Of a DNA stretch of 64,000 nucleotides, positions 33,679 to 62,884 are shown in pieces. The stretch is taken from NCBI GenBank assembly GCA_963815115.1, contig CAWFFN010000007.1, positions 1,024,001-1,088,000 on the forward strand, read 5' to 3'. Numbering within the stretch: the first letter of the stretch is position 1; every line of letters starts with the position of its first letter. Under the pieces are notes generated by a model. The model did no database searches, was not told where the DNA came from, and saw only the letters and a list, made by a program, of their open reading frames with translations. Origin of the DNA: an uncultured delta proteobacterium (GTDB lineage Bacteria > Desulfobacterota > Binatia > DP-6). The translations under genes and the position numbers were made by a program.

Positions 33679-34209
33679 TCAGGCGAGGCGGAGCCACTCT
33701 TCGGGGAGCTCGACCCGGGTCGGGCGGTGGAGGAGGTCGAGCAGGACGAGCACGCGCTGGCGCGCCGTCAGGCGCCGCTCCACGACCGCGGCGAGGCCCC
33801 GGAGCGGCCCGCTGGTGATGGTGACCGGGCGGCCGGCGACGACGGGGTTGACCTCGATGACTCCGTCGGCCCCTGCGCGGGCGCGCAGGTACGCGATCAC
33901 CTCGGAAGCCACCCGGGCCGGCGTGTCTCCGAACGCGACGAGGCGCAGCGCGCCGCTGCAGCTCGCCAGTCCGCTCTGGTGAACCGGGTCGGGTTGGCAG
34001 AAGACATAGCCCGGAAACATCGGACCGACCTCTCCGCCAACCGCCGGGCGCGGCCACTGCCGCAGGAGCGGCAGATAGGTCGCGACCCCCTCGCGCACCA
34101 GGACCGCCTGGACCGCGCGCTCCTTGTGGCGCTTGGTCTGCAGCACGAGCCACCCGCCATCGGCGGATAAAGCTCCGCCGTACGGGCGCGAATCATGTCG
34201 AGCCGACAT
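33679..34209 (-). CDS. NusG/RfaH-family operon-specific transcription antiterminator
   Basis: WLVLQTKRHKE, YLP, PMFPGYVF, LVAFG; KOW ITSGPLRGL..RVLVLLDLL. Confidence 0.9.
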   Translation of the reverse strand: MSARHDSRPYGGALSADGGWLVLQTKRHKERAVQAVLVREGVATYLPLLRQWPRPAVGGEVGPMFPGYVFCQPDPVHQSGLASCSGALRLVAFGDTPARVASEVIAYLRARAGADGVIEVNPVVAGRPVTITSGPLRGLAAVVERRLTARQRVLVLLDLLHRPTRVELPEEWLRLA

Positions 34210-47712: not shown

Positions 47713-50700
47713 ATGATCTGGCCCCCGTTTCTCCAGGGCCTGGTCGACCGGGCCTCGTCTTCCCGGGCTGCCTTCAAGGACTCCCAGGAGCCGATTCGGG
47801 CCGAGCTGTTCAGCGTCGAACGCCTCGAGCAGCACGCCGAGAGCCTCGCCGCCGCCCAGCGAGTCACCGACGATCCCGGCCGCGGCCGTCCCCTCGCCCC
47901 CCGCGTGCGCGACAATGCCCGCGCGCTGCTCGAGTCGTATCGCCTGCTCGTCGAGGCCATCCGCGAGGAGCGCATCGTATCGCCCGCGGCGGAGTGGCTG
48001 GTCGACAACTTCCACATCGTGGACGAGCAGCTGCGCGAGATCCGCGACCACCTCCCGTCGGGATACTACCGCGAGCTACCGAAGCTGGCGGAGAAGCACC
48101 TGGCCGGATATCCCCGCGTGCTCGGGCTGGCGTGGGCCTTCGTGGCGCACACCGACAGCCGCTTCGACCCCGACGCGCTGCGCCGCTTCGTTCGTGCCTA
48201 CCAGCGCGTCCAGCCGTTGCTGATCGGCGAGCTGTGGGCGATCGCTATCACGCTGCGCGTCGTCCTGGTCGAGAACCTCCGCCGCCTCTCGGAGCGCATC
48301 GTCGCCGCTCGTGAGGAGCGGCAGCGGGCCGACGAGCTGGCGGACGGGCTCCTCGGCCTCGGCGGGCGGCCTGCCGCCGAGGCGGCTGCCGCCCTCGGTC
48401 GGCTCGATCGCGGCGCGCTGCCGAGGAGCTTCGCGGTTCAGCTGGTGCAACGGCTTCGCGAGCAGGATCCCGCCGTGGTGCCTGCCCTGCGCTGGCTCGA
48501 CGAGCACCTGGCGGCGGAGGGCACGAGCAGCGAGGACATCGTGCATCGCGAGCACGAAGCCCAGGCCGCCATGAACGTGACGGTGCGCAACGTGATCACG
48601 AGCATGCGCCTCATGTCGGCGCTCGACTGGAAGGAGTTCTTCGAGAGCGTCAGCCTGGTCGACGAAGTCCTGCGGGCCAAGAGCGCCTTCCTCGACATGG
48701 ACTTCGCGACCCGCGACCGGTACCGCCATGCGATCGAGCAGCTGGCGCGCCGCTCGGGCCACCCCGAGACCGATGTGGCCCACCGCGCCGTCGCCAAGAC
48801 CGCGGCCGCCGGCGACGATCCCACCGGGCGACGGCGAGATCCCGGGTATCATCTCATCGCCGGCGGGCGCGCAGCGTTCGAGAGAGAGCTCGGCTTCAAT
48901 CCGGGGCTTCGCCGCCGGCTCCTGAGAGCCTACGTGGCAGCGGGCACCCCGGCGTATCTCGGCACCACCGCGATCCTGAGCCTCGTCATCCTCGCCCCGC
49001 CCCTCCTGCTCGCTGCCCGCGGCGGGGCCGGACCGTTCGCTCTGCTCGCGTTCGGGCTCCTCGGGCTGTTCCCGGCCACCGACCTCGCGATCGCCCTCAC
49101 CAATCGCGGCGTGGTCGAGCGCATCAGGCCCGCACCGCTGCCGAAGCTGGCGCTGCGCGACGGTATCCCGGCGGAGCTCCGCACCATGGTCGTCGTGCCC
49201 ACGCTGCTCACCAGCGTCGCCGACGTGGAGCAGCAGATCGACGGACTCGAGATCCACTCCCTCGCCAACTCGGACGCCGAGCTGCGCTTCGCGCTCGCGT
49301 CTGACTGGATCGACGCGCCGACGGAGGAGATGCCCGAGGACGACGTGCTGCTCGCCGCGGCCCGGGCCGGGATCGCCCGCCTGAACGAACGCCATGGTCC
49401 GACGCCGGACGGTGGAGACCGCTTCTTCCTCTTCCACCGCCGGCGAATCTGGAACCCGAGCGAAGGCGTCTGGATGGGCTGGGAGCGCAAGCGTGGCAAG
49501 CTGCACGAGCTCGACCGCATGCTGCGAGGCGCGTCCGATACCAGCTTTCTCCCGGTTTCGCCGCCGGTCCCCGAGGGCGTGCGGTACGTCATCACGCTCG
49601 ACGCCGACACCCGGCTGCCCGGCGGAACCGCACGGCAGCTGGTGGGGACGATGGCGCACGCCCTCAATCGCCCGCGCCTCGACCCCGCCACACACCGGGT
49701 CGTGGAGGGCTACGGCCTGCTCCAGCCGCGAGTCACCCCGACGCTGCCCGAGGACGGCCAGGGATCGCTCTACCAGCGCATCTTCTCCGGCCCGTGCGGT
49801 ATCGATCCCTATGCCGCCGCGACCTCGGACGTCTACCAGGACCTCTTCGGGGAAGGGTCGTACACCGGAAAGGGCATCTACGACGTCGACGCCTTCGAGG
49901 CGGCCCTCGACGGACGCGTCCCCGACAACTCGCTGCTGAGCCACGATCTCTTCGAGGGGCTGTTCGCGCGGGCCGGCCTGCTCACCGACGTCTCCCTGTT
50001 CGAGGAATTCCCCTCCAACTATCTGGTTGCAACGGGGCGCCAACACCGTTGGGCACGAGGAGACTGGCAGCTGCTCCCGTGGCTGATCGGATGGGTGTCG
50101 GCGCCGATCTCCATCATCGGCCGCTGGAAGATACTCGACAACCTGCGGCGCACACTGTCGCCGCTGGCCGTCTATGTCCTCCTGGTGGCGGACTGGACGC
50201 TGCCCGTGGGCAGGCCGGGAATGTGGACGACGTTCGTGTTGGCGGCCGTCATCCTCGCGGCGCTCGTCCCGGTCCTGCACGAGGTCGTGCCCCGGCGGAG
50301 CGGCATCTCGAAGCGCAGCCACGTGCGTGCGGTTGCGGCCGACCTGGCCGTTGCCGGCTCGCAGGTGGCGCTCACGTTCACCCTGCTCGCCCACCAGGCG
50401 TTCGTCATGGGCGACGCGATCGTGCGGGCTCTCGTCCGCCTGATCGTCACCAGGCGGCGCCTGCTCGAGTGGATGACCGCCGCGCAGGCGAAGGCGGGAC
50501 AGGATCTCTCGCTCGGGGCCTTCGTCGTGCGCATGGGCGGCGCCATCGTGCTCGCGGTGGCCGCAGCCGCGCTCGTCCTGGGCTTCGGCCGAACGGGGGC
50601 GTGGCCGCTGGCCTTGCCGTTCGTCGCCCTCTGGGTGCTGTCGCCGGCGGTCGGCTGGTGGATCAGCCAGCCCCGGGAGGGCGCCGTCGCCGAGCCGCTC

Positions 50701-53700
50701 GGCGACGACGACGCGCGCATGCTCAGGACGACCGCGCGGCGGACCTGGCGCTTCTTCGAGACCTTCGTCGGATCGGAGGCTCACGCGCTCCCTCCCGACA
50801 ACTTCCAGGAAGACCCCCATCCGGTCGTGGCGCATCGCACGTCGCCGACCAACGTCGGTCTCTACCTCCTCTCCACCGCTGCGGCCCACGATTTCGGCTG
50901 GCTCGGGATCCTCGACACCCTCGATCGCCTGGCCGCGACGCTCGACACGCTGAACGGCCTCGAGCGCTTCCGGGGGCACTTCTACAACTGGTACGAGACG
51001 CGAGAGCGACGGCCCCTCGATCCCAAGTACGTCTCGACGGTCGACAGCGGAAACCTCCTCGGCCATCTGCTCGCGCTCGCGCAAGGCTGTCGCGAGCTGA
51101 TCCACCGCCCGCTCCTCGATGCAGAGGTGCTCTCGGGCATCGGCGACACGCTCCTGGTGCTGCGAGAGACCATGGACAGCCTGGCCGACGATCGGCGCAC
51201 GCTCACCGTGACGCGCAAGACCCTCGCCGACGCCGTGGACGCCGTGGCCGCCGCGCTCGAGCCGATTCCCATGAGCACCGCTGCGTGGGGCGCCCGGTTC
51301 GCCCAGCTCGAGACGCTGGCCGACACGATGACCGACATCGCGCGCACCCTGGCCGCCGAACGTGACGACCCCGCGGCCCGCGAGCTCGCCGCCTGGGCGG
51401 AGGCCGTGCGCGCGGGCGTCGCGAGCTGGGCGCGAGACCTCGACGCGCTCCTGCCCTGGGCACGACCGCCGCAGGCGGATCCCGCGATCGAGTTCCCCGT
51501 CCCGACTCCCGCGAGCGCTCCCGACACGTGCGAGGCCATCGTCGCCCGCCTCGCGGACCGTCCCGCCCAGGCGGCGCTCGTCGAGCGCCTCGAGCGGTCC
51601 GCGAGCGCCTGTGCCTCCCTCCGCCGACGGCTCGAGACCCTGGGGCGCCTGGCCGACGCGATGGCAGGCGAGATGGACTTCCGCTTCCTCTTCGACGCCA
51701 CGCGCAACCTGTTCCGGATCGGCTTCCGCGTGGCCGACGGCGAGCCCGATGCAAACTACTACGACCTGCTCGCTTCCGAGGCGCGCCTCGCGAGCTTCGT
51801 CGCCATCGCCAAGGGCGACGTCCCCACCTCCCACTGGTTTCAGCTCGGTCGCACGATGACGCCCGTCGTTCGCGGCTCCGCGCTGGTGTCGTGGTCGGGC
51901 TCGATGTTCGAGTACCTGATGCCCGAGCTGGTGATGCGGTCGCCCGCGGGAAGCCTGCTCGAGCAGACGTGCGAGCTGGCCGTGCGACGGCAGATGCAAT
52001 ACGGCGCCGAGCGCAAGGTCCCGTGGGGGATATCGGAATCGGCCTACAACGTCCGCGGGCTCGATCTGACCTATCAATACTCGAGCTTCGGGGTGCCCGG
52101 CCTGGGGCTCGAGCGCGGTCTCAGCGAGGACCTGGTGGTCGCTCCGTACGCCACCGCGCTGGCGGCGATGGTCGATGGACCCGCGGCGGCCCGGAACCTG
52201 ACCCGGCTCGCCGCTGCGGGGGGCCGCGGTGCCTACGGCTTCTACGAGGCGCTCGACTACACCGCGACCCGCGTTCCCGAGGGGAGCACCGTCGCTCCCG
52301 TGCGCGCCTACATGGCGCACCACCAGGGCATGACGCTGGTGGCCCTCCTGAACGTGCTCCACGACGGCGTCATGCGGCGGCGCTTCCATGCCGAGCCGAG
52401 CGTGCAGGCCAACGATCTGCTGTTGCAGGAGCGAACGCCGCGCGATGTGGGCGTCGCGCGCCCGCGGGTCGACGAGGTCAACGCGGCTCGCCACGTCCGC
52501 GATGTCGCTCTACCGGTGCAGCGGCGCGTCCGCTCACCGCACGGGCCGGTCCCCCATACCCACCTGCTGTCGAACGGCCGGTATGCCGTCATGCTGACCG
52601 CCGCCGGCTCGGGATACAGCCGGTGCCACGACCTGGCGGTGACCCGCTGGCGCGAGGACGTCACCCGGGACTGCTGGGGCCAGTACGTCTTCCTGCGCGA
52701 CACGCAGCGCGGGGAGGTCTGGTCGGTCGGCTATCAGCCCACCGGGGCGACACCGGACGCCTACGAGGCGGTGTTCGCGGAAGACCGCGCCGAGTTCCGC
52801 CGCCGCGACGGCGCCATCTCGACGACCATGGAGGTGGTCATCTCTCCCGAGGACGACGCCGAGGTGCGCCGCATCTCGCTCACGAATCTCGGCGCCCGGG
52901 CACGCGAGATCGAAGTCACCTCGTATGCCGAGGTCGTCTTGGCGCCGCCCGCAGCCGATGCGGCGCATCCGGTGTTCTCCAACCTCTTCGTCCAGACGGA
53001 GTTCGTGCCCGACGTCAGCACCCTCCTCGCCTCCCGCAGGCCTCGCTCGCCCGAGGAAGCGCCGGTCTGGGCCGCGCACCTCGTCGTCGTCGAGGGCGAG
53101 ACGGTCGGCGGAGCACAGTTCGAGACCGACCGGGCGCGATTCCTCGGTCGCGGGCGGGGCATCCGCACCCCCATGTCGGTCATCGACGGCCGGCCACTCT
53201 CCAACACGATGGGCGCCGTCCTCGATCCGATCTTCAGCCTGCGCCACCGGATCCGGCTCGCCGGGGGCGCCAGCGCGCACCTCACCTTCTCGACCCTGGT
53301 CAGCTCCTCCCGCGAGGCGGTGCTCGACCTGGCCGACAAGTACCACGATCCGTCGATCTTCGAGCGTGCAGCCACGCTCGCCTGGACGCGCGCCCAGGTC
53401 GAGCTGCACCACCTTCGCGTCGAGCCCAGCGAGGCGCACCTCTTCCAGCGGCTGGCCAGCCGCATCCTGTACTCCGACCGGTCTCTGCGTCCGTCGCAGG
53501 AAGCGCTGGAGCGCAACGTCGCCGGGCAGTCGGGGCTCTGGGCTCACGGCATCTCCGGCGATCTCCCCATCGTCCTGGTGCGCATCGACGAGGAGGAGGA
53601 TCAGGAGATCGTCCGGCAGCTGCTGCGTGCCCACGAGTACTGGCGCATGAAGCAGCTCGCGGTCGATCTCGTGATCCTGAACGAGAAGCCGGTGTCGTAC

Positions 53701-56397
53701 GCCCAGGATCTGCAGACGACGCTCGAGACGATCGTCCGCACCAGCAGGTCCGGCCAGCTCCAGCCCGGAGAGATCCCGCAGGGCGGTGTGTTCGTCCTGC
53801 GCGCCGAGACCATCAGTCCGCAGGAACGCGATCTCCTGCAGACCGCCGCGCGCGCGCGCCTGCTCAGCCGCCACGGCACGCTCGCCGAGCAGGTGACGCG
53901 CATGGAGGCGCCGGAGACGGCCGCACCACCTCCCTCCCGCAGCATCACTCAGGCGCCGCCGGCCGACGACGCCCCGCCGCCCCGGAGGCCGGAGCTGGAG
54001 TTCTTCAACGGTCTGGGAGGTTTCACGACGGACGGCAAGACGTACGTCACCATCCTCGGCGAGGGGCAGTGGACTCCGACACCATGGATCAACGTGGTGT
54101 CGAACGGCGCGTTCGGGTTCCAGGTCTCGGAGTGCGGCGCCGGCTACACCTGGGCGATCAACAGCCACGAGAACCAGCTGACGCCATGGTCGAACGATCC
54201 GGTGAGCGACCCGGCCGGTGAGATCTTCTACGTCCGCGACGAGGAGACCGGCGAGCTGTGGGGTCCGACCGCGCTGCCCATCCGCGAGGAGCACTCCACG
54301 TACCTCGTGCACCACGGCCCGGGCTACAGTCGCTTCGAGCACACGTCGCACGGGATCGCGCTCGACCTCCTCCAGCTCGTCCCGGTCGACGACCCGCTCA
54401 AGATCTGCCGGCTCACGCTCGAGAACCGCTCCGGCCGGCCGCGCCGGCTGAGCGTGACGGCGTACGTCGAGTGGGTCCTCGGCGCGTCGCACAGCGCGAG
54501 CGCGCCGTACGTCGTCACCGAGATCGACAAGGGGACGGGCGCGCTGCTCGCCCGCAACCCGTGGCATCCGGAGTTCGGCGGCCGGCTCGCGTTCGCCGAC
54601 CTGCGCGGGCGCCAGACGAGCTGGACGGGCGATCGCACGGAGTTCGTCGGACGCAACGGCACGCTCGACCACCCGGCGGCTCTCGAGCGTCCCGGGCCCC
54701 TGTCGGGACGCGTCGGAGCTGGACTCGACCCGTGCGCCGCGCTGCAGGCGTCGATCGAGCTGCGAGCGGGCGCGCGCGCCGAGGTGGTCCTGCTGCTCGG
54801 CCAGGGAGCGACCGCCGACGAGGCGCGCTCGCTGATCGCGCGCCATCGCGCGGCCGACGTCGACGTCACCCTGACAGCCGTAGCGACCCGCTGGGACGAC
54901 ATCCTGTCGGTCGTGCAGGTGCGTACGCCCGACCGCTCGCTCGACGTGATGCTGAACTCCTGGCTGCTCTACCAGGCGCTCTCCTGCCGGGTCTGGGCGC
55001 GGGCCGCGTTCTACCAGGCGAGCGGCGCCTACGGCTTCCGCGACCAGCTCCAGGACCTGATGGCGATCACCCTGGCGCGCCGCGACCTCGCCCGCGAACA
55101 TCTGCTGCGTGCGGCTGCACGGCAGTTCGTCGAGGGCGACGTCCAGCACTGGTGGCATCCACCTTCCGGCAGAGGGACGCGCACACGCATCTCCGACGAC
55201 CTGGTCTGGCTACCCTATGCGGCGATCCACTACCTCGAGACCACCGGCGACATGGGTCTCCTCGACGAGGTCGTGCCCTTCATCGAGGGTCCGGTGCTCG
55301 CTCCCGATCAGCTCGAGGCTTACTTCGCGCCGACCGTCTCCAGCCAGACCGGCACCTTCTTCGAGCATTGTGCCCGCGCCCTCGACCGCAGGCTGGAGGT
55401 CGGCAGCCACGGCCTCCCGCTCATGGGAACCGGCGACTGGAACGACGGCATGAACCGCGTCGGCCCGGCGGGGCGCGGCGAGAGCGTGTGGCTCGGCTGG
55501 TTCCTCCACACCACGCTGTGGGAGTTCGCGCGCATCGCCGACCTGCGCGGCGAGGCGAAGCGGGCGGCAAAATGGATGCAACACGTGACCGCCCTGAGGG
55601 CGGCGCTCGAGCGCTCCTGGGACGGCGACTGGTACCGGCGTGCATACTTCGACGACGGCACCCCGCTGGGGTCGGTCAGCAACGCGGAGTGCCGCATCGA
55701 CTCGATCGCCCAGTCCTGGGGAGTCATCTCCGGCGCTGCCATGCCGGCTCGCGCCGAGCGCGCCATGGCGGCGGTCGAGGAATACCTCGTGCATCGCGGC
55801 GACGGCCTCGTCCTGCTGTTCACGCCGCCCTTCGATCAGACGCCCCTCGATCCGGGCTACATCAAGGGCTATCTGCCGGGCGTTCGCGAGAACGGTGGGC
55901 AGTACACGCATGCTGCCATCTGGGCCGTCCTCGCCTTCGCGGCGCTGGGCGACGGTGACAAGGCCGGCGAGCTGTTCGCCATCCTGAACCCGATCAATCA
56001 CGCGAGCACGCGCGCCGGCGTGCACCGCTACAAGGTGGAGCCGTACGTCTCCGCCGCCGACGTCTACGCGGCGCCGCCGCACGTGGGGCGTGGCGGATGG
56101 ACCTGGTACACGGGATCGGCGGGCTGGATGTACCGCGCCGGCATCGAGTGGATCCTCGGGTTTCGCCTGCGCGGCACGACCCTGCACCTCGATCCCTGCA
56201 TCCCCCGCGCGTGGCGCGGCTTCGAGGTCTCGTTCCGCTATCACTCGTCGCGATACGAGATCCGGGTTGAGAACCCGCGCGGCGTGACGCGCGGAGTATC
56301 GGGCGTGGAGGTCGACGGGCAGCGGCTCGAGGACGAAGGGGGTATTCCCCTCGCCGACGACGGCGGGACCCACCAGGTACATCTCGTTCTTGGCTGA
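47713..56397 (+). CDS. ndvB: Cyclic beta-1,2-glucan synthase (Cgs/NdvB/ChvB; GT84 + GH94 phosphorylase domains)
   Basis: 2894 aa; [83 protein letters not shown]. Confidence 0.97.
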
Positions 56398-56513
56398 GCA
56401 CCCGCCCGGCGTCGTCTGCCACCCGGACCCGGACGGCTTCGGCGGCGAACGCGGCTGTGCTAGCGGGGCGGCGGGACGTCGTGCGGAGCATCGTCGAACA
56501 GGGCGCCCGTCGC

Positions 56514-58361
56514 ATGAGCCAGCCCCTCGCCGGCGTCGTCCTGGTCGCGATGCTGGCGGGAGGCTGCGCCGCCCGGTCCTACGAGGGCGTGACCTTCGTG
56601 CGTCAGGGACAGCTCCTCCTGGCGTCCCGCGACACCCCGCCACCGACCGATGCGCCGGGGTGGGTCTCGGTGGAGCTGCCCGACATCTGGACCGTTGCGC
56701 GCCGTCGCCTCGGCACCGCCGGCTGGTATCGCTTCACTCTGTCCCTGGAAGAGGCCCCCCGTGACCTGTGGGGCGTCTACCTGCCTCGAGTCGGCATGAA
56801 CGCCGCCGTGTACGTGAACGGCGAGCTGGTCGGGGACGGAGGGCCGTTCAGGCCCGAGATCGCTCGCAACTGGAACCGGCCGCTCTACTTCACGGTTCCG
56901 GCGGGTCTCCTGCGCGCGGGACCGAACGTGGTCGAGGTGCGTCTCGAGATGCCGCCGGGCTCGCCCGGCATGCTGCAAGCCGTCGCGCTCGGTCCCGACC
57001 CCGTGCTGCGCCGCGCCTGGGAGTGGCGCTCGCTCGAGCAGGTGACCGTCGCCCAGGTGGTGTGCGCCGCCACGCTCGTGATGGCCCTCCTCGTGGGCGT
57101 GCTCTTTCTGCCGCGCGATCGCACCGGCGAGTATCGCTGGTTCGTGGCTGGGATGCTGTTGTGGGCGCTTCCGGCGCTCGACACCCTGCTGCGCCACCCA
57201 CCGCTCCCGACACCCGTCTGGGAGTGGACCACGCAGACCGCCCTCAACTGGGGAATCCCGTTCTGCACCCTGGCGGCGCACCGCGCGCTCCACATCCGCC
57301 GGCCGCGCCTCGAGGCGGCGATCGTGGCCATCGCGGTCGGGGGTGCCCTCATACGTGCACTGATGCCCCCCCTCTACGCCTTCCGCGTCACCCTGGTGTG
57401 GCTGCTGTGGACGATCGGCCTCGGCGTCTACCTCGTCTGGATCTTCGGACGCGCGGCGCGCAGCGGGCAGTACCGCCGGAGCCGTGCCTTCCAGATCGCC
57501 GGGCTGCTCGGACTCGCGCTCGGGATCCACGACATCATCTTCCTGGCCGCTGGGCTGCCCGCCGGTGGTCCCCTCCTCTCCCCCTACATCCCCGCCGTCG
57601 CCATGCTGGCGGCCGGCTGGGTCATGGTCGCCAACCTCGGCACCGTGCTCGTGCAGTCGGAGGAGCTCAACGCCGAGCTCGAGCAGCGCGTCGCCGACAA
57701 GCACAGCGAGCTCGAACGCAACTACGGCCGCCTGCGGGAGCTCGAGCGTGAGCGCGCGATCGCCGGCGAGCGCGAGCGGATCATGCGCGACATGCACGAC
57801 GGCATGGGAGGACAGCTGGTGTCGACGCTCGCGATGGTCGAGTCGGGCCGTTTCACCTCCGACACCGTGGCCGATGCCATCCACGCCGCGCTCGACGACA
57901 TGCGCCTCGTGGTCGACTCGCTCGAGCCGGTCGAGGGCGATCTCCTTTCCGTCCTGGCCATGGTGCGCGGCCGGCTCGAGCCGCGCCTCGCGCGCCACGG
58001 CATCCGCTTCGACTGGCAGGTGACCGATCTCCCGCCCCTTCCCGCCTTCGGCCCCGAGCGCGCCCTTCACGTGCTGCGTGTGGTCCAGGAGGCCGTCACC
58101 AACGTTCTCAAGCACGCGCAGGCGAGCACGATCACGATGCGGACGGGCATCGACCCTGGACCCGGCTCCGCCCGCGGGGTGTTCGTCGAGGTATGCGACG
58201 ATGGCCGGGGCTTCGATGGACCGCGTGCCGGCGGGCGCGGCCTGCCCAACATGCAGCGGCGCGCCGCGGAGCTGGGCGGAGATCTCTCGGTATCCACGTC
58301 CGGACCGGGCACGACGGTGCGCCTCTGGTTGCCGCTCGGCGACGCTACTCGTCCAGCCTGA
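56514..58361 (+). CDS. Membrane sensor histidine kinase (HisKA_3) with extracellular jelly-roll domain and ~7 TMs
   Basis: WVSVELPD..GWYR..VYVNGELVG; ERERIMRDMHDGMG; QEAVTNVLKHA, DDGRGF, GRGLPNM. Confidence 0.92.
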   Translation: MSQPLAGVVLVAMLAGGCAARSYEGVTFVRQGQLLLASRDTPPPTDAPGWVSVELPDIWTVARRRLGTAGWYRFTLSLEEAPRDLWGVYLPRVGMNAAVYVNGELVGDGGPFRPEIARNWNRPLYFTVPAGLLRAGPNVVEVRLEMPPGSPGMLQAVALGPDPVLRRAWEWRSLEQVTVAQVVCAATLVMALLVGVLFLPRDRTGEYRWFVAGMLLWALPALDTLLRHPPLPTPVWEWTTQTALNWGIPFCTLAAHRALHIRRPRLEAAIVAIAVGGALIRALMPPLYAFRVTLVWLLWTIGLGVYLVWIFGRAARSGQYRRSRAFQIAGLLGLALGIHDIIFLAAGLPAGGPLLSPYIPAVAMLAAGWVMVANLGTVLVQSEELNAELEQRVADKHSELERNYGRLRELERERAIAGERERIMRDMHDGMGGQLVSTLAMVESGRFTSDTVADAIHAALDDMRLVVDSLEPVEGDLLSVLAMVRGRLEPRLARHGIRFDWQVTDLPPLPAFGPERALHVLRVVQEAVTNVLKHAQASTITMRTGIDPGPGSARGVFVEVCDDGRGFDGPRAGGRGLPNMQRRAAELGGDLSVSTSGPGTTVRLWLPLGDATRPA

Positions 58362-59028
58362 CCAGCCCGAGCTGCAACGCCTCGTACACCGCCTCGCCGC
58401 GGGAGTGGACCTCGAGCTTCCGGTAGATGTTGCGAACGTGCGTGGTGACGGTGTGGGCGGAGACGACCATCAGGCGCGCCGCCTCGGCGTAGCTGAAGCC
58501 CTTCACGATGAGGGTGAGGACCTCGTGCTCGCGCTCGGACAGGTGCGGCAGGGCGCCGTCGCCGGGGTCCCGCACCGGCGTCGCGGCTGCGGGCGGGGCG
58601 AGGCGCTTCAGCAGGTAGCGCGCAATCGGCGGGCTGATCGGCGAGCCGCCTTCGACGAGCTCCATGATGGAATCCCCGATGTAGTCGGGGGAGCCGTCCT
58701 TCAGCAGGTAGCCGAGCGCGCCCGCCTCGATCGCGGCGACCACGTGCTGCTCGTCGCCGAAGATGGTGATCACCATCGCCAGGGTGGGTGCGCCCTGCTG
58801 CCGCAGCCCACGGATGAGATCGATGCCGTTGCCGTCGGGTAGGCCGAGGTCCGTCAGGAGCACGTCCGGAACGGCCTTCGCCAGCTCGGCGCGCGCCTCG
58901 GCGAGGCATCCCGCCGCGGCCGCCAGGCGGAGGCGCGGGTGGGCACGCACCGCGCTCGCCAGCCGGACGCGGGTGTTCTCGTCGTCCTCGACGAGGAGCA
59001 CGGCGTGGCGGGCCTTGGGCGAGGTCAC
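58345..59028 (-). CDS. NarL/LuxR-family response regulator
   Basis: LLVEDD, DVLLTDLGLPDG, GYLLKD; LSEREHEVL..G.SY.E.A..HTVTTHVRNIYRKL. Confidence 0.95.
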   Translation of the reverse strand: MTSPKARHAVLLVEDDENTRVRLASAVRAHPRLRLAAAAGCLAEARAELAKAVPDVLLTDLGLPDGNGIDLIRGLRQQGAPTLAMVITIFGDEQHVVAAIEAGALGYLLKDGSPDYIGDSIMELVEGGSPISPPIARYLLKRLAPPAAATPVRDPGDGALPHLSEREHEVLTLIVKGFSYAEAARLMVVSAHTVTTHVRNIYRKLEVHSRGEAVYEALQLGLVRLDE

Positions 59029-59092
59029 GGGGCATTCTATGCCATGCGGCCCTCGCGCGCTCCTCCCCAGAATTGGGGAGCGCGCAGTCCCT

Positions 59093-60199
59093 CTAGCGGG
59101 CGCTGTAGCGGACGCGGAAGAGACGCAGGCCGATGGCGAGGGTGGCGCCGCCGTAGACGAGCAGCATGATGCTGGGCAGCACGATGGCCTCGAGGCCACG
59201 CTGGCGCAGGATGAGGTCGTTCAGGCCGCGCATGGCCCACGTGGTGAACACCGCGGGCGCGATGCGGCTCATCCACTCGGGCTGCATCGACTGAGGCCAC
59301 CAGAGACCACCGAGGGCGGACACGGCCATCACCAGCGAGAGGCCGAGCGGCAGGGTCTGTTCCCGCGACCGCGCGATCCCGGCGACCAGCATGCCCGCCG
59401 CCACCACCGCGAAGACCGACGCCAGCGTGAGGAGCAGCATCGCCAGCGGCGACGAGCCGAGCGAGACGCCGAACAGCCAGTGTCCCCAGGCCAGCAGCAA
59501 GAGCATCTGCACCACGCCGACGACGAAGCGCGCCGCGAGCTTGCCCAGCAGGATGCGGGTGAAGCCCCCGGGGGCGACCAGGAGGCGAGAGAGCGTTCCC
59601 CAATCACGCTCGTCGTGCATGCTCATGGACGTGCCGAAGACGACCGCCAGGAGCACGAACATCAGCGCGAATCCGGGGACCCGCTGCTCGAACACCGAGA
59701 CCGAGAGCCGGTTGCCGGTGAGATTCTCCTCGCGCAGCGTGATCTTCTCCTCGGAGAACGGATCCGCGAGCGCCGCCGCCTCCTTGTCCATCAGGAGCAG
59801 GAGCACCTTGACGCCTTGCAGGTCGCTGCCGGCGGCCGGGTCGGTGAGGAGCAGGATCTCGCTCGATCGGCCCTGGAGGTACTGCTTGCTCAGCTTGGGC
59901 GGGAAGACGATCGCCGCGGCGGCGTCGTGCTTGTCCCGCACCAGGTGCTCGGCTTCGGCGCGGCTGACCTCGCGCACGTCCGCGTGGTCACCGAGGAGCT
60001 TGATGAATGTGCTCGCCACCGGGCCGCCGTCCTCGTTCACCACCGGCACCATGAGCTTGGGGCCGTCGTCGCCGTGGAAGAGGCCCTGCGCGATCACGGT
60101 GATGACGATGATCGGCATCAGGAGCGCGAAGGCGAGCGCCGAGCGGTCGCGGAGGAAGATGCGGAGGTCCTTGCGGAACACGGCGAACATGGTGGTCAC
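59093..60199 (-). CDS. ABC-2 type exporter permease
   Basis: KDLRIFLRDR, ERDWGTLSRLLVAP, LLGK, LGGLWWP..QPEWM; 6 TM + periplasmic loop. Confidence 0.92.
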   Translation of the reverse strand: MTTMFAVFRKDLRIFLRDRSALAFALLMPIIVITVIAQGLFHGDDGPKLMVPVVNEDGGPVASTFIKLLGDHADVREVSRAEAEHLVRDKHDAAAAIVFPPKLSKQYLQGRSSEILLLTDPAAGSDLQGVKVLLLLMDKEAAALADPFSEEKITLREENLTGNRLSVSVFEQRVPGFALMFVLLAVVFGTSMSMHDERDWGTLSRLLVAPGGFTRILLGKLAARFVVGVVQMLLLLAWGHWLFGVSLGSSPLAMLLLTLASVFAVVAAGMLVAGIARSREQTLPLGLSLVMAVSALGGLWWPQSMQPEWMSRIAPAVFTTWAMRGLNDLILRQRGLEAIVLPSIMLLVYGGATLAIGLRLFRVRYSAR

Positions 60200-60792
60200 G
60201 AGCCCCCGCCCTGTCCCTCCGCGACTTTCGCGCGCAGGCGGTCGAGCAGTCCCTGGAACGAGTCCTTGGCAACCGCGGCATCGAACTGGGCGCGGAAGTT
60301 TCGCGCCAGGCTCACGCCCTCGACGCTGATGTCCGTCGCTTTCCAGGTGTCACCGGAGCGGCGCATCGTGTAGTCGACCGCGAAGCGATCGCCCGAGGTG
60401 ATGACCTCGGTACCTACCCGGGCCTGGTCGCCGTTGACCGTCTCGCTGCCGTAGGCGAAGTCGGGGGCGTCGAAGAGGAGAAGGCGCTGCGTGTAGGTGC
60501 GCACGAAGAAGTCGTGGAACAGCTTGTAGAACTCCTCGGTCTCGGCCGGGCTGCGCCCCTCGAGGTGCGGGCCGGCGGCCAGCTTCGCGAGGGCTTCGGT
60601 ATCGAGGAATCCGCGTAGGAGATCGCTCAGCGCCGCCAGCTTCTGCTTCCGGTCGCCGCTGCCACGGACGATCGTGTTGCTGCGCTCCAGCACGCTGCGA
60701 GTGACCGCCATGGGCCCCTCGGCGGCGGCCGCTGGTCTCAGGCTGGCGACCGCGAGCGCCGTGGCGAGAAGAACGGCCCCGCGCCGCGGCAT
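60196..60792 (-). CDS. MlaC/Ttg2D-like periplasmic lipid-binding protein
   Basis: Signal peptide; FLD...A...AG, FFVRTY, VDYTM..WKATDISVEGVSLARNFRAQF. Confidence 0.9.
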   Translation of the reverse strand: MPRRGAVLLATALAVASLRPAAAAEGPMAVTRSVLERSNTIVRGSGDRKQKLAALSDLLRGFLDTEALAKLAAGPHLEGRSPAETEEFYKLFHDFFVRTYTQRLLLFDAPDFAYGSETVNGDQARVGTEVITSGDRFAVDYTMRRSGDTWKATDISVEGVSLARNFRAQFDAAVAKDSFQGLLDRLRAKVAEGQGGGS

Positions 60793-61787
60793 CAGTCCCG
60801 CAGTTCCTTTCCCGTGAGGTCGAGGAAGACGTCGTCGAGGGTGACGGGCGTGACCCGCGTCCGCAGGATGCCGTGCCCGAGCGCGGACACCGCGCGGTAC
60901 ACGCGCGGCAGCGCCTGCTGTGCCCGCGTGGTGAAGATGCGCAGGTCGTTACCGACCACCTCGACCTTGCGCACGCCGTCGACCGCCTCGAGAGGCGCAA
61001 CCGTCTCGGGGGGCTGGAGCAGGCGCAGATCGATCACCTCGGTGGCGTTGGAGAGCGCCAGGAGCTCGGGCAGCGTCCCACACGCCACCACGTGGCCATC
61101 GTCCATGATCGCGATGCGATCGCACAGGTTCTCCGCTTCCTCGAGGTAGTGCGTGGTGTAGAGGATGGTGGTGCCGCGCGTGCGCAGCGCGCGCACGGCG
61201 TCGAAGATGTGCGCCCGTGACTGAGGGTCGACCGCCACCGTGGGCTCGTCGAGGAGGACGAGCCTGGGCGCGCTCACCAGCGCGCAGCCGAGATTGAGGC
61301 GCCGCCGCATGCCGCCCGAATAGGTCGCGACGCGGTCGTCCTTGCGCGACGACAACCCCACGACCTCGAGCGCCTCGATCACGTGCTGCCGCCGCTGCGC
61401 CCGCGGCACGCCATAGAGCTCCGCGAAGAAGGTGAGGTTCTCCTCGGCCGTCAGGCTCGGGTAGAGAGCCTCTTCCTGGGGTGCGACGTTGAGGAGCCGG
61501 CGCGCGGCATCGACGTCGTGCACGACGTGCTTGCCCAGCACCCAGGCGTCGCCGCTGGTCGGACGGATGCGCGTCGAGATCATCGAGAGGAGCGTCGTCT
61601 TGCCCGCGCCGTTGGGTCCGAGAAGGCCGAAAATCTCGCCTTCGGGAATATCGAGCGATACGCCGCGTACGACCTCGCGGCCGGCGTACTCACGCCGGAG
61701 CTCGCGCAGGACGACCGCTGATCTGACAGCTCGCAGCTGGGGTCGTGGCTGTTCGGGGACGACGAAGGGACGAACGGAGGTCTTCAT
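60792..61787 (-). CDS. ABC-2 type (DrrA-like) exporter ATP-binding subunit
   Basis: GPNGAGKTT, YSGGMRRRLN, LLDEPT, YTTHYLEEAE. Confidence 0.95.
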   Translation of the reverse strand: MKTSVRPFVVPEQPRPQLRAVRSAVVLRELRREYAGREVVRGVSLDIPEGEIFGLLGPNGAGKTTLLSMISTRIRPTSGDAWVLGKHVVHDVDAARRLLNVAPQEEALYPSLTAEENLTFFAELYGVPRAQRRQHVIEALEVVGLSSRKDDRVATYSGGMRRRLNLGCALVSAPRLVLLDEPTVAVDPQSRAHIFDAVRALRTRGTTILYTTHYLEEAENLCDRIAIMDDGHVVACGTLPELLALSNATEVIDLRLLQPPETVAPLEAVDGVRKVEVVGNDLRIFTTRAQQALPRVYRAVSALGHGILRTRVTPVTLDDVFLDLTGKELRD

Positions 61788-62776
61788 GGTCTCCTATCTC
61801 GCAATGCAACGATCGGCGCGTCGGAAGGTTGCGCCACATCGGAAGGTTGCGCCACAAAAGTGGGTTCCTGCCCGAACATTCGCTGCCATTCGCGGCTGCG
61901 GCTCGCAAGCGCCCGCTCGACGACGACCCGGCGGCGCTGGAGATAGCCGTTGCGGGCCGCGCTATAGAGATCGAGGACGCTGTCCTCGACATCGGCGAAC
62001 AGGCGGAGGTTCAGGGAGCGCTCGTTGACGGCGGTGACGATCGATTTGGCCCGATTGGCAAAGAAGGGGAGAACGTAGCTGATCGGATCGAGGAGGCCGT
62101 CGATGCCCCGGCCGATGGCATCACGCACGTTGAGCGGCGGGAAGGTCGGCAGTACCAGAAAGGGCCCGTCGCCGACGCCGTACATCGCGAGCGTCTGACC
62201 CGCATCGGCGTTGCTCGGCTCGATGTGGAGAGTCGATGCGACGTCGAAGAAGCCCGCGACCCCGACCGTCGTGTTCACGGTGAAGCGCGCCACCTCGCGC
62301 GCCGCACCAATCGGCCGGGCCTGCAGGATGCTGTTCACGAGCCGCCGCGGCATGTCGAGGTTGTCGAAGAACCGCGAAAGACTCCGGCGTGCAGGCTCGG
62401 GAGCGACCTTCGACCATCCGGTGGCCGCCGGCTTCACCAGATACCTGTCGAGGATGTCATGGTTGAAGAAGAACATCTTCTCGTTGAATGGCTGCCAGGG
62501 ATCCCAGTCGTCGGCCTCTTCGAGGCTGTCCGACGCGCCCGGGTCGTCGAGCAGCCGCGCGCTCCGCACGCCGCCGTCCGGACCGGGCCCGGCCCCCGGA
62601 CCCCCGAGACCCGGCGAGCGGGCACAGCCGACGCCCATCATGACGACGAGCAGGCCGACCGCGACCAGCAACCGCCTCGGTGTCTCGATCTGCATGTGTT
62701 GATTCATGACTAGGGCCAGAGCATCCGCCGTTCGATGCGTCTGGCTTTTCCCTGGTTTCACCCTCGCATTTTCCAT
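61784..62776 (-). CDS. mlaA: VacJ/MlaA-family outer-membrane lipoprotein (true start may be ATG 62707)
   Basis: Lipobox GVGC; DPWQPFNEKMFFFN, FFDNL, RFTVNTTVGVAGFFDVA, DAGQTL..YGV..GPFLVLP, DLY..ARNGYLQRR. Confidence 0.88.
   Translation of the reverse strand: MENARVKPGKSQTHRTADALALVMNQHMQIETPRRLLVAVGLLVVMMGVGCARSPGLGGPGAGPGPDGGVRSARLLDDPGASDSLEEADDWDPWQPFNEKMFFFNHDILDRYLVKPAATGWSKVAPEPARRSLSRFFDNLDMPRRLVNSILQARPIGAAREVARFTVNTTVGVAGFFDVASTLHIEPSNADAGQTLAMYGVGDGPFLVLPTFPPLNVRDAIGRGIDGLLDPISYVLPFFANRAKSIVTAVNERSLNLRLFADVEDSVLDLYSAARNGYLQRRRVVVERALASRSREWQRMFGQEPTFVAQPSDVAQPSDAPIVALRDRRP
61821..61856. repeat. Perfect 18-nt tandem duplication in the mlaA 3' end (VAQPSD x2)
   Basis: tcggaaggttgcgccaca repeated twice. 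Confidence 0.9.
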
Positions 62777-62867
62777 TGCAGCTTACACGTTCCTCGCTGC
62801 GTTGCGGATGTGCACGATTGCATACCGCCCTCGGCCGTCTCAGATGGATTGCTGAAGCAAAGCACTA

Positions 62868-62884
62868 AGCAAATTCCCTGCCTG
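62868..62884 (-). promoter_or_regulatory. Putative sigma54 promoter of the mlaA-ABC operon
   Basis: Minus strand CAGGCAGGGAATTTGCT (GG-N10-GC, TTGCT at -12). Confidence 0.5.

Follow-up and report, generated by a model that had tools for sequence, protein, structure and literature searches.

An MlaC carrier genetically tied to an ABC-2 transporter in uncultured Binatia: a candidate new pathway of lipid transport through the cell envelope

In the 64,000-nucleotide (nt) stretch of DNA analyzed here, hereafter the window (C7:1024001-1088000 of G000, the assembly of an uncultured soil bacterium, 6.9 Mb in size and 100% complete by marker genes), the minus strand carries four closely spaced genes for, in this order, an MlaA/VacJ-family lipoprotein, a DrrA/ABCA-like ATP-binding cassette (ABC) ATPase, an MlaC-family periplasmic carrier, and an ABC-2 permease (Table 1). 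The order and coordinates, as given in a first-pass annotation of this DNA, were confirmed by the open reading frames (ORFs), by family matches, and by overlaps of 4, 1, and 4 nt. Both the way in which lipids traverse the periplasm and the direction in which Mla-type carriers work are still debated, and here MlaC and MlaA are genetically tied to an ABC-2 transporter of exporter fold. By its composition, the operon resembles a pathway for lipid transport through the cell envelope that has not been described so far.

Table 1. Features of the mlaA-ATPase-mlaC-permease operon, in window coordinates
Feature	Coordinates	Strand	Remarks
Sigma54-type -24/-12-like element GGCAGGGAATTTGC	62869..62882	-	upstream of mlaA; predicted
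mlaA/vacJ-family outer-membrane lipoprotein gene	61784..62776	-	longest ORF 330 amino acids; PF04333
ABC ATPase gene, DrrA/ABCA-like, with putative C-terminal DrrA-type domain	60792..61787	-	PF00005, TIGR01188
mlaC-family periplasmic carrier gene	60196..60792	-	PF05494; Sec signal peptide, no lipobox
ABC-2 (type V fold) permease gene	59093..60199	-	PF12698
GC-rich hairpin directly 3' of the permease stop	59048..59091	-	RNA fold; no T tract

The mlaA and ATPase genes meet at ATGA, the ATPase and mlaC genes at TGATG, and the longest ORFs of mlaC and the permease at GTGA. Orthologous permeases begin MLAVF, which makes the ATG at 60190, a few bases past the mlaC stop, the probable translation start of the permease. 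Orthologues likewise point to the ATG at 62707 (MNQHMQ...) as the probable MlaA start, ahead of a signal peptide whose lipobox-like GVGC aligns to LAGC, VAGC, and LTGC of the orthologous proteins. The sigma54-like promoter claimed in the first-pass annotation does not rise above chance in the window alone, where GGCA-N6-TTGC has 2 matches against 1.54 expected. The claim regains ground elsewhere, with an element comparable to GGCAGGGAATTTGC upstream of mlaA in 10 of the 15 loci inspected (window included) and sigma-54 (rpoN) encoded in G000; it is this conservation that argues for a candidate sigma54 promoter of the operon. The hairpin downstream of the permease (-27.7 kcal/mol, z -2.43, with 2 of 200 shuffles equally good) is possibly the end of the operon; a terminator consensus scan did not call it, and scans for sigma70 promoters and intrinsic terminators found none.

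Family models agree with the anticipated assignments, with the ATPase below the DrrA cut-off. MlaA matches PF04333 at E 1.2e-60 over profile positions 3-193 of 195, and its score on the MlaA equivalog NF011672 (126.6 bits) lies under the cut-off of 375. The carrier matches PF05494 in Pfam (E 6.4e-34) and has a Sec-type signal peptide and no cysteine. Its best NCBIfam match, HpnM (TIGR03481), stays below that model at 69.5 bits against a cut-off of 160.1, and the E. coli-type MlaC equivalog NF011697 gives 28.7 bits against 195. An AlphaFold2 (AF2) model of the carrier (predicted local distance difference test score [pLDDT], 89.9) has as its top Foldseek matches the lipid-bound MlaC/Ttg2D structures 8dte, 6hsy, 2qgu, and 5uwa (query TM-score, 0.66-0.75; 0.66-0.85 on MlaC/Ttg2D structures when normalized to query or target length). 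All 12 structural matches at E<=0.001 belong to the MlaC/Ttg2D family and are mostly described as phospholipid binding or lipid bound, and the nearest ESM Atlas clusters are generic MlaC/Ttg2D clusters.

The ATPase (PF00005, E 5.7e-33) has DrrA (TIGR01188) as its best NCBIfam family, at 283.3 bits under a cut-off of 312.45, and scores 20.7 against a cut-off of 27.4 on the DrrA C-terminal domain PF13732. Its best sequence matches among solved structures are the nucleotide-binding domains of ABCA7, ABCA3, ABCA4, and ABCA1 (E 1e-86 to 1e-75), and it is ~30% identical to the ATPase at the MlaF position of G000. The permease matches PF12698 (E 2.2e-30), with PF01061, PF12679, and PF12730 likewise above cut-off. 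Its AF2 model (pLDDT, 80.7) consists of one transmembrane (TM) helix, a periplasmic alpha/beta domain of ~120 amino acids (~residues 45-165), and then five TM helices; of the 55 permease columns that are invariant among 28 orthologues, 23 fall in the periplasmic domain. The best Foldseek match of this model is Tribolium ABCH-9C with ceramide (8yzp; E 4e-9), followed, in order, by the T. maritima ABC-2 periplasmic domain 3cni, ABCA4/7/3, ABCG5/8, KpsM, and NosY. A predicted complex of the permease dimer with mature MlaC, run with their own alignments and without controls, scored 0.30 and 0.24 against a mark of 0.32 and was given no weight for or against an interface.

Elsewhere in the genome, at C9:1597-1600k, lies a separate mlaF-mlaE-mlaD/mlaA-mlaC operon, beside hpnE, hpnH, and a squalene-hopene cyclase gene (shc). 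An MlaA gene and an MlaC gene stand convergent at C9:1626k, and this MlaC exceeds the HpnM cut-off (198.9 bits against 160.1). Three further MlaE/MlaD loci bring MlaD and MlaE to four loci outside the window in total. Because G000 holds this canonical operon and a separate HpnM, and because the window MlaC falls so far below the HpnM cut-off, the MlaA and MlaC of the operon are, as judged from these matches, extra copies and not the partners of a distant mlaFED. The search for a separate mlaFEDB or hpnN that the first-pass annotation had proposed thus recovered an mlaFED operon along with HpnM and gave no HpnN-like match: the best HpnN score in G000 was 76 bits against a cut-off of 751.85, and none of four sampled genomes of its genus had an HpnN-like match at E<=1e-60. 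G000 does have two shc genes, hpnE, hpnH, and an HpnM above cut-off. Within the window coordinates, MlaD (PF02470), MlaE (PF02405), and MMPL had no match, as the earlier reading of the sequence had held; for MlaF, a generic ATPase, a family model cannot establish such an absence. In the canonical operon (L021 5675-6982, minus strand), MlaD and MlaA share one open frame of 435 amino acids, composed of an MCE domain, an Arg-rich low-complexity stretch, a signal-peptide-like segment, and the MlaA domain; the frame could represent a genuine fusion or a pair of cistrons that lack an intervening stop. Contiguous MlaD-MlaA matches occur also in L043 and L048, from another family.

The core of the operon recurs. 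In the order ATPase-MlaC-permease, it was found in 9/9 loci of a species-genome collection, in the 30/30 best loci of a search of 151 genomes of the class (28 of them new), and in 20/20 larger loci with ~7-kb flanks, of which 4 duplicate loci of the first set; in these class genomes, order was inspected in 38 of the 40 with an MlaC match of at least 40% identity. All instances belong to a single class of uncultured bacteria (Binatia-like metagenome-assembled genomes), so that counts of kin overstate the independent observations. Because the order of the three genes was kept in all these loci, a chance ordering is rejected. Metagenomes tell the same story, with the ATPase upstream of MlaC in 71 of 73 and the permease downstream in 73 of 74 judgeable loci (80 loci in total). 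The first-pass annotation had looked to recurrence of the four-gene order; the arrangement is indeed conserved beyond G000, but the conserved unit is three genes, not four, and MlaA is a minority partner.

Within the class, the window MlaC was matched at E<=1e-25 in 43 of 151 genomes, 40 of the 43 at >=40% identity. By family, matches were found in 10/17 genomes of f1, 18/18 of f88, 5/8 of f90, 4/5 of f92, 2/2 of f97, and 1/17 of f5; the matches in f86 (2/8) are both among the three weak ones (33-34% identity), which lie outside the MlaC loci inspected for order. One of these three genomes, G258, has MlaC genes that adjoin MMPL and MCE genes, as seen at loci fetched for another purpose. In a sample of 201 genomes of the phylum, 2 of the 30 best-scoring loci have the ABC-2 arrangement, both in genomes of the window's family. 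The MlaCs of the remaining 28 loci are <=34% identical to that of the window and adjoin an MlaF-like ATPase and/or MlaD or MlaA (17 loci), an HpnN-like MMPL gene (5), or an outer membrane efflux protein (OEP) gene, which they directly follow (4); no such neighbor was found at 2 loci. G000 itself carries a second ATPase-MlaC-ABC-2 permease module at C5:401-404k, whose three proteins are 60, 43, and 52% identical to those of the window and which has no MlaA.

The phylogeny sets these carriers apart. In maximum-likelihood trees (quick method, SH-aLRT support, sampling within one phylum), the ABC-2-linked MlaCs (n=28) form a single clade with support values of 100 and 99 in two trees. This clade sits apart from the MlaCs adjoining MCE (MlaD) genes and groups loosely (support, 94) with the MlaCs linked to MMPL genes and most of those linked to OEP genes. 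When 1.84 billion representative proteins were searched with a profile of the clade, it retrieved 11,214 MlaC-family proteins, of which only ~40 scored above roughly 140 bits before the scores leveled off; by this measure, the ABC-2-linked subfamily is small. A search of longer proteins for fused forms of MlaC returned three matches, all with partial domains (half of MlaA plus a third of MlaC; an ABC-domain tail plus MlaC), which were judged to be gene-call or frameshift artifacts and not Rosetta-stone fusions.

MlaA is the outer membrane partner in a minority lineage only, and most relatives carry a TolC-family OEP instead. In 19 of the 20 larger loci, an OEP gene (PF02321; best NCBIfam family, TIGR01844) adjoins the module, directly after the permease (11 loci), divergent from the ATPase (7), or upstream on the same strand (1); in the twentieth, MlaA directly follows the permease. 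A search of the class sample with one of these OEPs matched 35/151 genomes and placed an orthologue in 31 of the 40 module genomes, within ~3 kb of MlaC in 26. In the other five, the OEP lies on another contig; the module contig ends at or within ~0.4 kb of the module in four of them, and the contig end of the fifth, G327, was not checked. The nine module genomes without an OEP match are exactly the nine with an adjacent MlaA, which is located upstream as in the window (7), convergent downstream (1), or downstream on the same strand (1). G000 has no match to the OEP of its relatives at E<=1e-10, nor does the window, and none of five OEP-type genomes has an MlaA closer than 40% to that of the window. 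In the metagenome loci, MlaA is upstream in 19 and convergent downstream in 8, an OEP is downstream in 8, neither is nearby in 2, and 43 were not judgeable. Genes for an HlyD-type membrane-fusion protein (MFP) were found neither in the window nor in the flanking ORFs scanned at 15 loci (~5-7 kb per side), the rest of the genome not being searched.

In a tree built by the same quick method and with sampling likewise within one phylum, the window MlaA falls in a class-specific clade (31 of 47 rows; support, 93) of ABC-2- or MMPL-linked MlaAs that is separate from the MlaAs of mlaFED operons (L021, L109-L113). Hence, neither MlaC nor MlaA of the operon groups with the canonical Mla orthologues, a grouping that the first-pass annotation had named as counting against its reading. 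The "upstream" MlaA type (15 rows) is sister to MlaAs preceding HpnN-like MMPL genes in the module-less same-family genomes G249, G258, and G323 and at a second locus of G307. The "convergent" type forms a clade of its own (99), which the single "downstream" MlaA (L106) joins with a support of 85, and the tree suggests that the module may have acquired an MlaA on more than one occasion.

Several side observations touch on these outer membrane partners. At L204-L208 (G249, G258, G323, and G307), the closest relatives of the window MlaA lie directly upstream of HpnN/BstA-like MMPL genes, and at L204, the MlaA frame continues into the MMPL gene as an open frame of >1100 amino acids with one TGA reported. 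An OEP gene lies directly beside an MlaC-like gene without the ABC-2 module at L200-L203 (G076, G203, G211, and G303) and, in other families of the phylum, at L038, L040, L051, and L053. In G211, OEP, MlaC, and HpnN-like MMPL genes stand in a row; in G076 and G303, the OEP-MlaC pair adjoins two lipid A late acyltransferase genes, with a DAHP-synthase-family (KdsA-like) gene nearby in the former and an SIS+CBS (KdsD-like) gene nearby in the latter. On these gene contexts, OEP-MlaC pairing seems widespread and undescribed.

Taken together, these data lead us to favor, with a probability of about 0.57, the view that the operon specifies a self-contained transport system spanning the envelope for a membrane lipid or another very hydrophobic molecule, probably working outward with MlaC as its carrier. 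A dedicated envelope-spanning system is favored because the gene order is conserved, the MlaCs form their own clade, the module has been duplicated as a paralogue, and the outer membrane partners are complementary. In the mechanism that we propose, a homodimeric ABC-2 permease of the ABCA/ABCH/ABCG fold and its DrrA/ABCA-like ATPase would extract the substrate from the inner membrane and load it onto the dedicated soluble MlaC encoded between the two ABC genes. Loaded MlaC would then cross the periplasm and dock at the MlaA-type lipoprotein in this lineage or at the OEP in most relatives. Outward lipid transport is favored because the engine shares the exporter/extruder fold of the ABCA/ABCH/ABCG lipid pumps and most often has a TolC-family protein as its partner, and a net movement from the inner to the outer membrane is, by this analogy, most likely. 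Both engine components have lipid-linked relatives, the ATPase having its nearest kin among the ABCA lipid transporters and the permease model most resembling an ABCH with ceramide bound. The physical contacts, the transport direction, and a lipid as the cargo are inferred.

A number of points weigh against this view. The lineage of the window MlaA, as its tree and gene contexts indicate, is not exclusive to the ABC-2 module, and its nearest relatives (62-65% identity) adjoin HpnN-like MMPL genes in module-less sister genomes. A TolC-family partner without an MFP has no known working model, and at 2 of the 37 metagenome loci that could be judged, a partner gene is missing from the neighborhood. 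Gene context does not point to a substrate, which we had considered as a source of evidence, since the flanks vary and hold no consistent biosynthetic neighbor: in family f88, the module lies between serA-purA and a fabI-like gene, and other loci show P450, luciferase-like, or RecQ genes. The outward direction is read, by analogy, from nothing other than the usual behavior of ABC-2/type V folds and TolC-family proteins. Some ABCA-family members are importers, which also speaks for an inward-working system. The direction of Mla itself has been disputed in the literature (PMC10665443).

Such an inward-working system would resemble Mla in lipid homeostasis: MlaA or the OEP would remove misplaced lipid from the outer membrane, MlaC would carry it inward, and the ABC-2 transporter would return it to the inner membrane. 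MlaA and MlaC act in this way in the E. coli model (PMC10665443), and the window proteins keep both domains, as well as the MlaC fold, intact. A complete mlaFED-A-C operon is already present in G000, though, the engine is of an exporter-type fold with no MCE ring to take lipid from MlaC, and the partner of most relatives belongs to a family known as an exit duct. None of these objections is decisive, and we regard retrograde transport as rather unlikely. The DrrAB-like ATPase and permease, the adjacent TolC-family gene of most relatives, and the lack of an MFP gene in the flanks of the 15 scanned loci would also fit a pump whose cargo is not a membrane lipid and which provides efflux of xenobiotics, tolerance to them, or secretion of a hydrophobic metabolite, with MlaC as a periplasmic adaptor that replaces the MFP and hands the cargo to the OEP or MlaA; one ABC-2 pump that does have an MFP is E. 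coli YbhGFSR. This alternative is hard to reconcile with a carrier whose structural matches at E<=0.001 are without exception MlaC/Ttg2D proteins, most of them phospholipid binding or lipid bound, with the housekeeping surroundings of the module in f88, and with the exchange of the OEP for MlaA, which is not a duct and fits poorly with efflux to the medium. Such a pump therefore appears improbable.

A further alternative is that, in this lineage, an exporter of hopanoids or other triterpenoids has taken the place of HpnN. MlaAs of one and the same lineage precede HpnN-like MMPL genes in sister genomes (G249, G258, G323, and G307, with L204 at 556 bits on TIGR03480) and the ABC-2 module in the window. 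The best NCBIfam match of the window MlaC is HpnM, and G000 has its two shc genes, hpnE, hpnH, and HpnM; its HpnN-like matches do not exceed 76 bits, and a tblastn search with the MMPL gave none. The window MlaC nevertheless fails the HpnM model that another G000 protein passes, and HpnN-like genes are no rarer with the module (14/40 genomes) than among the others (41/111). Moreover, G299 has both an MlaA-linked module and an HpnN above cut-off, and the window contains no hopanoid genes. A hopanoid-specific role is thus possible for the genus of G000 and unsupported class-wide; as an explanation of the operon at large, we consider it very unlikely. That there is no system at all, with mlaA and mlaC serving the canonical MlaFED and merely adjoining an unrelated ABC-2 drug pump, is scarcely credible. 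The four gene families are all common and short overlaps are frequent in high-GC operons, but the order is kept in every examined locus across several families and in the paralogue, the ABC-2-linked MlaCs form a separate clade, and the canonical operon has an MlaC and an MlaA of its own. Synteny and tree already contradict this last explanation.

The outward lipid transport system that we favor shares features with several known machineries. Like Mla (MlaFEDB-MlaC-MlaA), it combines an MlaC-fold periplasmic carrier and an MlaA-family lipoprotein with an ABC transporter. In contrast to Mla, the window operon has no MlaD, MlaE, or STAS protein and uses an ABC-2/type V permease with a DrrA/ABCA-like ATPase as its engine, its MlaC and MlaA fall outside the mlaFED-linked clades, and most relatives of the module use a TolC-family protein in place of MlaA. 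The HpnN (MMPL/RND)-HpnM-VacJ-like systems and the BstA-type sterol transporters likewise pair a non-MCE inner membrane transporter with MlaC-like and MlaA-like proteins, and they come closest through the orthologous MlaA that adjoins an HpnN-like MMPL gene in sister genomes and the one relative with OEP-MlaC-MMPL. The ABC-2 engine is ATP driven, however, whereas HpnN is a proton-driven RND protein, and the window MlaC fails the HpnM model, with another HpnM present in G000. Tripartite ABC-TolC pumps (MacAB-TolC, YbhGFSR) recall the ABC transporter gene adjoining a TolC-family gene in most relatives. YbhS and YbhR are ABC-2 permeases, and YbhG is an MFP. The module differs from these pumps in the soluble MlaC that takes the place of the MFP, no gene for which lies in the flanks of the 15 scanned loci, and, in the window, in having MlaA instead of an OEP.

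The closest ATPase sequences and permease-model structures are those of the eukaryotic ABCA/ABCH/ABCG lipid exporters (e.g., ABCA1 with apoA-I and Tribolium ABCH-9C), which also have a large extracytoplasmic domain. ABCA1/apoA-I is alike in concept, as a pump that extrudes lipid to a soluble acceptor, and the system of the window would differ from all of these exporters by its separate half-size subunits, its MlaC-fold acceptor, and a permease similarity at the level of the fold only (TM-score 0.52, 20% identity). LolCDE-LolA-LolB and NosDFY-NosL offer the same logic of an ABC extractor, a periplasmic carrier or partner, and an outer membrane lipoprotein acceptor, and NosY is among the structural matches of the permease; their carriers and acceptors, in contrast, have no homology to those of the window, and Lol is of a different ABC fold. 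As far as gene content can tell, the module lacks the defining features of Mla (the MCE protein and MlaE), of HpnN/HpnM, and of tripartite efflux pumps (the adaptor, for which the flanks of 15 loci were scanned).

A broader proposal, which we advance only tentatively and hold to be doubtful, is that MlaC-type carriers are general plug-in shuttles that connect MCE-ABC, HpnN-like RND, or ABC-2 engines to MlaA or TolC-family ports. This would entail docking or insertion at TolC-family proteins without an MFP and a natural anterograde MlaC route with an ABC-2 engine. In its favor, OEP-MlaC pairs without an adjacent transporter occur in four other genomes of the class and at 4 of the 28 phylum loci, and one genome has OEP-MlaC-MMPL. 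Full-text literature searches returned no description of an MlaC-ABC-2 or MlaC-OEP system, reports outside the searched literature being possible. In Negativicutes, mlaEFD is followed by tolC and tamB, and the part of the source describing this arrangement reports no link to ABC-2 (PMC10665443). If the outward lipid transport reading holds, MlaC carriers would not be bound to MCE transporters, and TolC-family proteins would gain a role in carrier-mediated lipid traffic. It would also provide a simple three- or four-protein system, suited to reconstitution, for testing the direction of MlaC-mediated transfer. Although known only from uncultured bacteria, the module is frequent in metagenomes from soil, where one scan gave 268 related stretches.

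Further observations concern the surroundings of related modules. The second module of G000 (C5:395000-410000, locus L019; module at L019 6172-8813, plus strand) has neither MlaA nor an OEP. One flank holds a divergent myo-inositol-1-phosphate-synthase-like gene, a DVU_1553-family AMP ligase, a KAS II-like gene, and a 3-hydroxyacyl-CoA dehydrogenase, and the other a GDSL hydrolase and a DltB-like MBOAT; by its gene content, the cluster looks like a specialized lipid or acylation cluster with its own exporter. It is found also in locus L030 at 83-87% identity, and the "Actinomycetota" label of that locus was not counted as an occurrence in another phylum on account of this identity to the paralogous cluster of G000. 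In G283 (L024/L063), the module permease matches in three pieces in different frames and is apparently frameshifted, and the module is followed by a second, distant pair of ATPase and ABC-2 permease genes. In some MlaA-type loci (L023 7818-9599 and L130 1800-2606), a conserved ORF of 593 amino acids without a Pfam match follows the permease; it has no counterpart in the window.

In the window, positions 47713-56397 (plus strand) hold an ORF of 2894 amino acids with GH94 supersandwich and catalytic domains and a glucoamylase-like domain, which looks like a cyclic beta-1,2-glucan synthase gene. It lies just upstream of a histidine kinase (56457-58361, plus strand) and LuxR-type response regulator (58345-59028, minus strand) pair, which was considered as part of the system and left out, as it is not kept beside the module in relatives. 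Positions 1-39000 carry an exopolysaccharide cluster with a Wza-like export protein, a GNVR chain-length protein, an initiating sugar transferase, and a Wzx-like flippase, together with several glycosyltransferases and aminotransferases, an acyltransferase-SGNH fusion, and a NusG-like gene (33679-34209).

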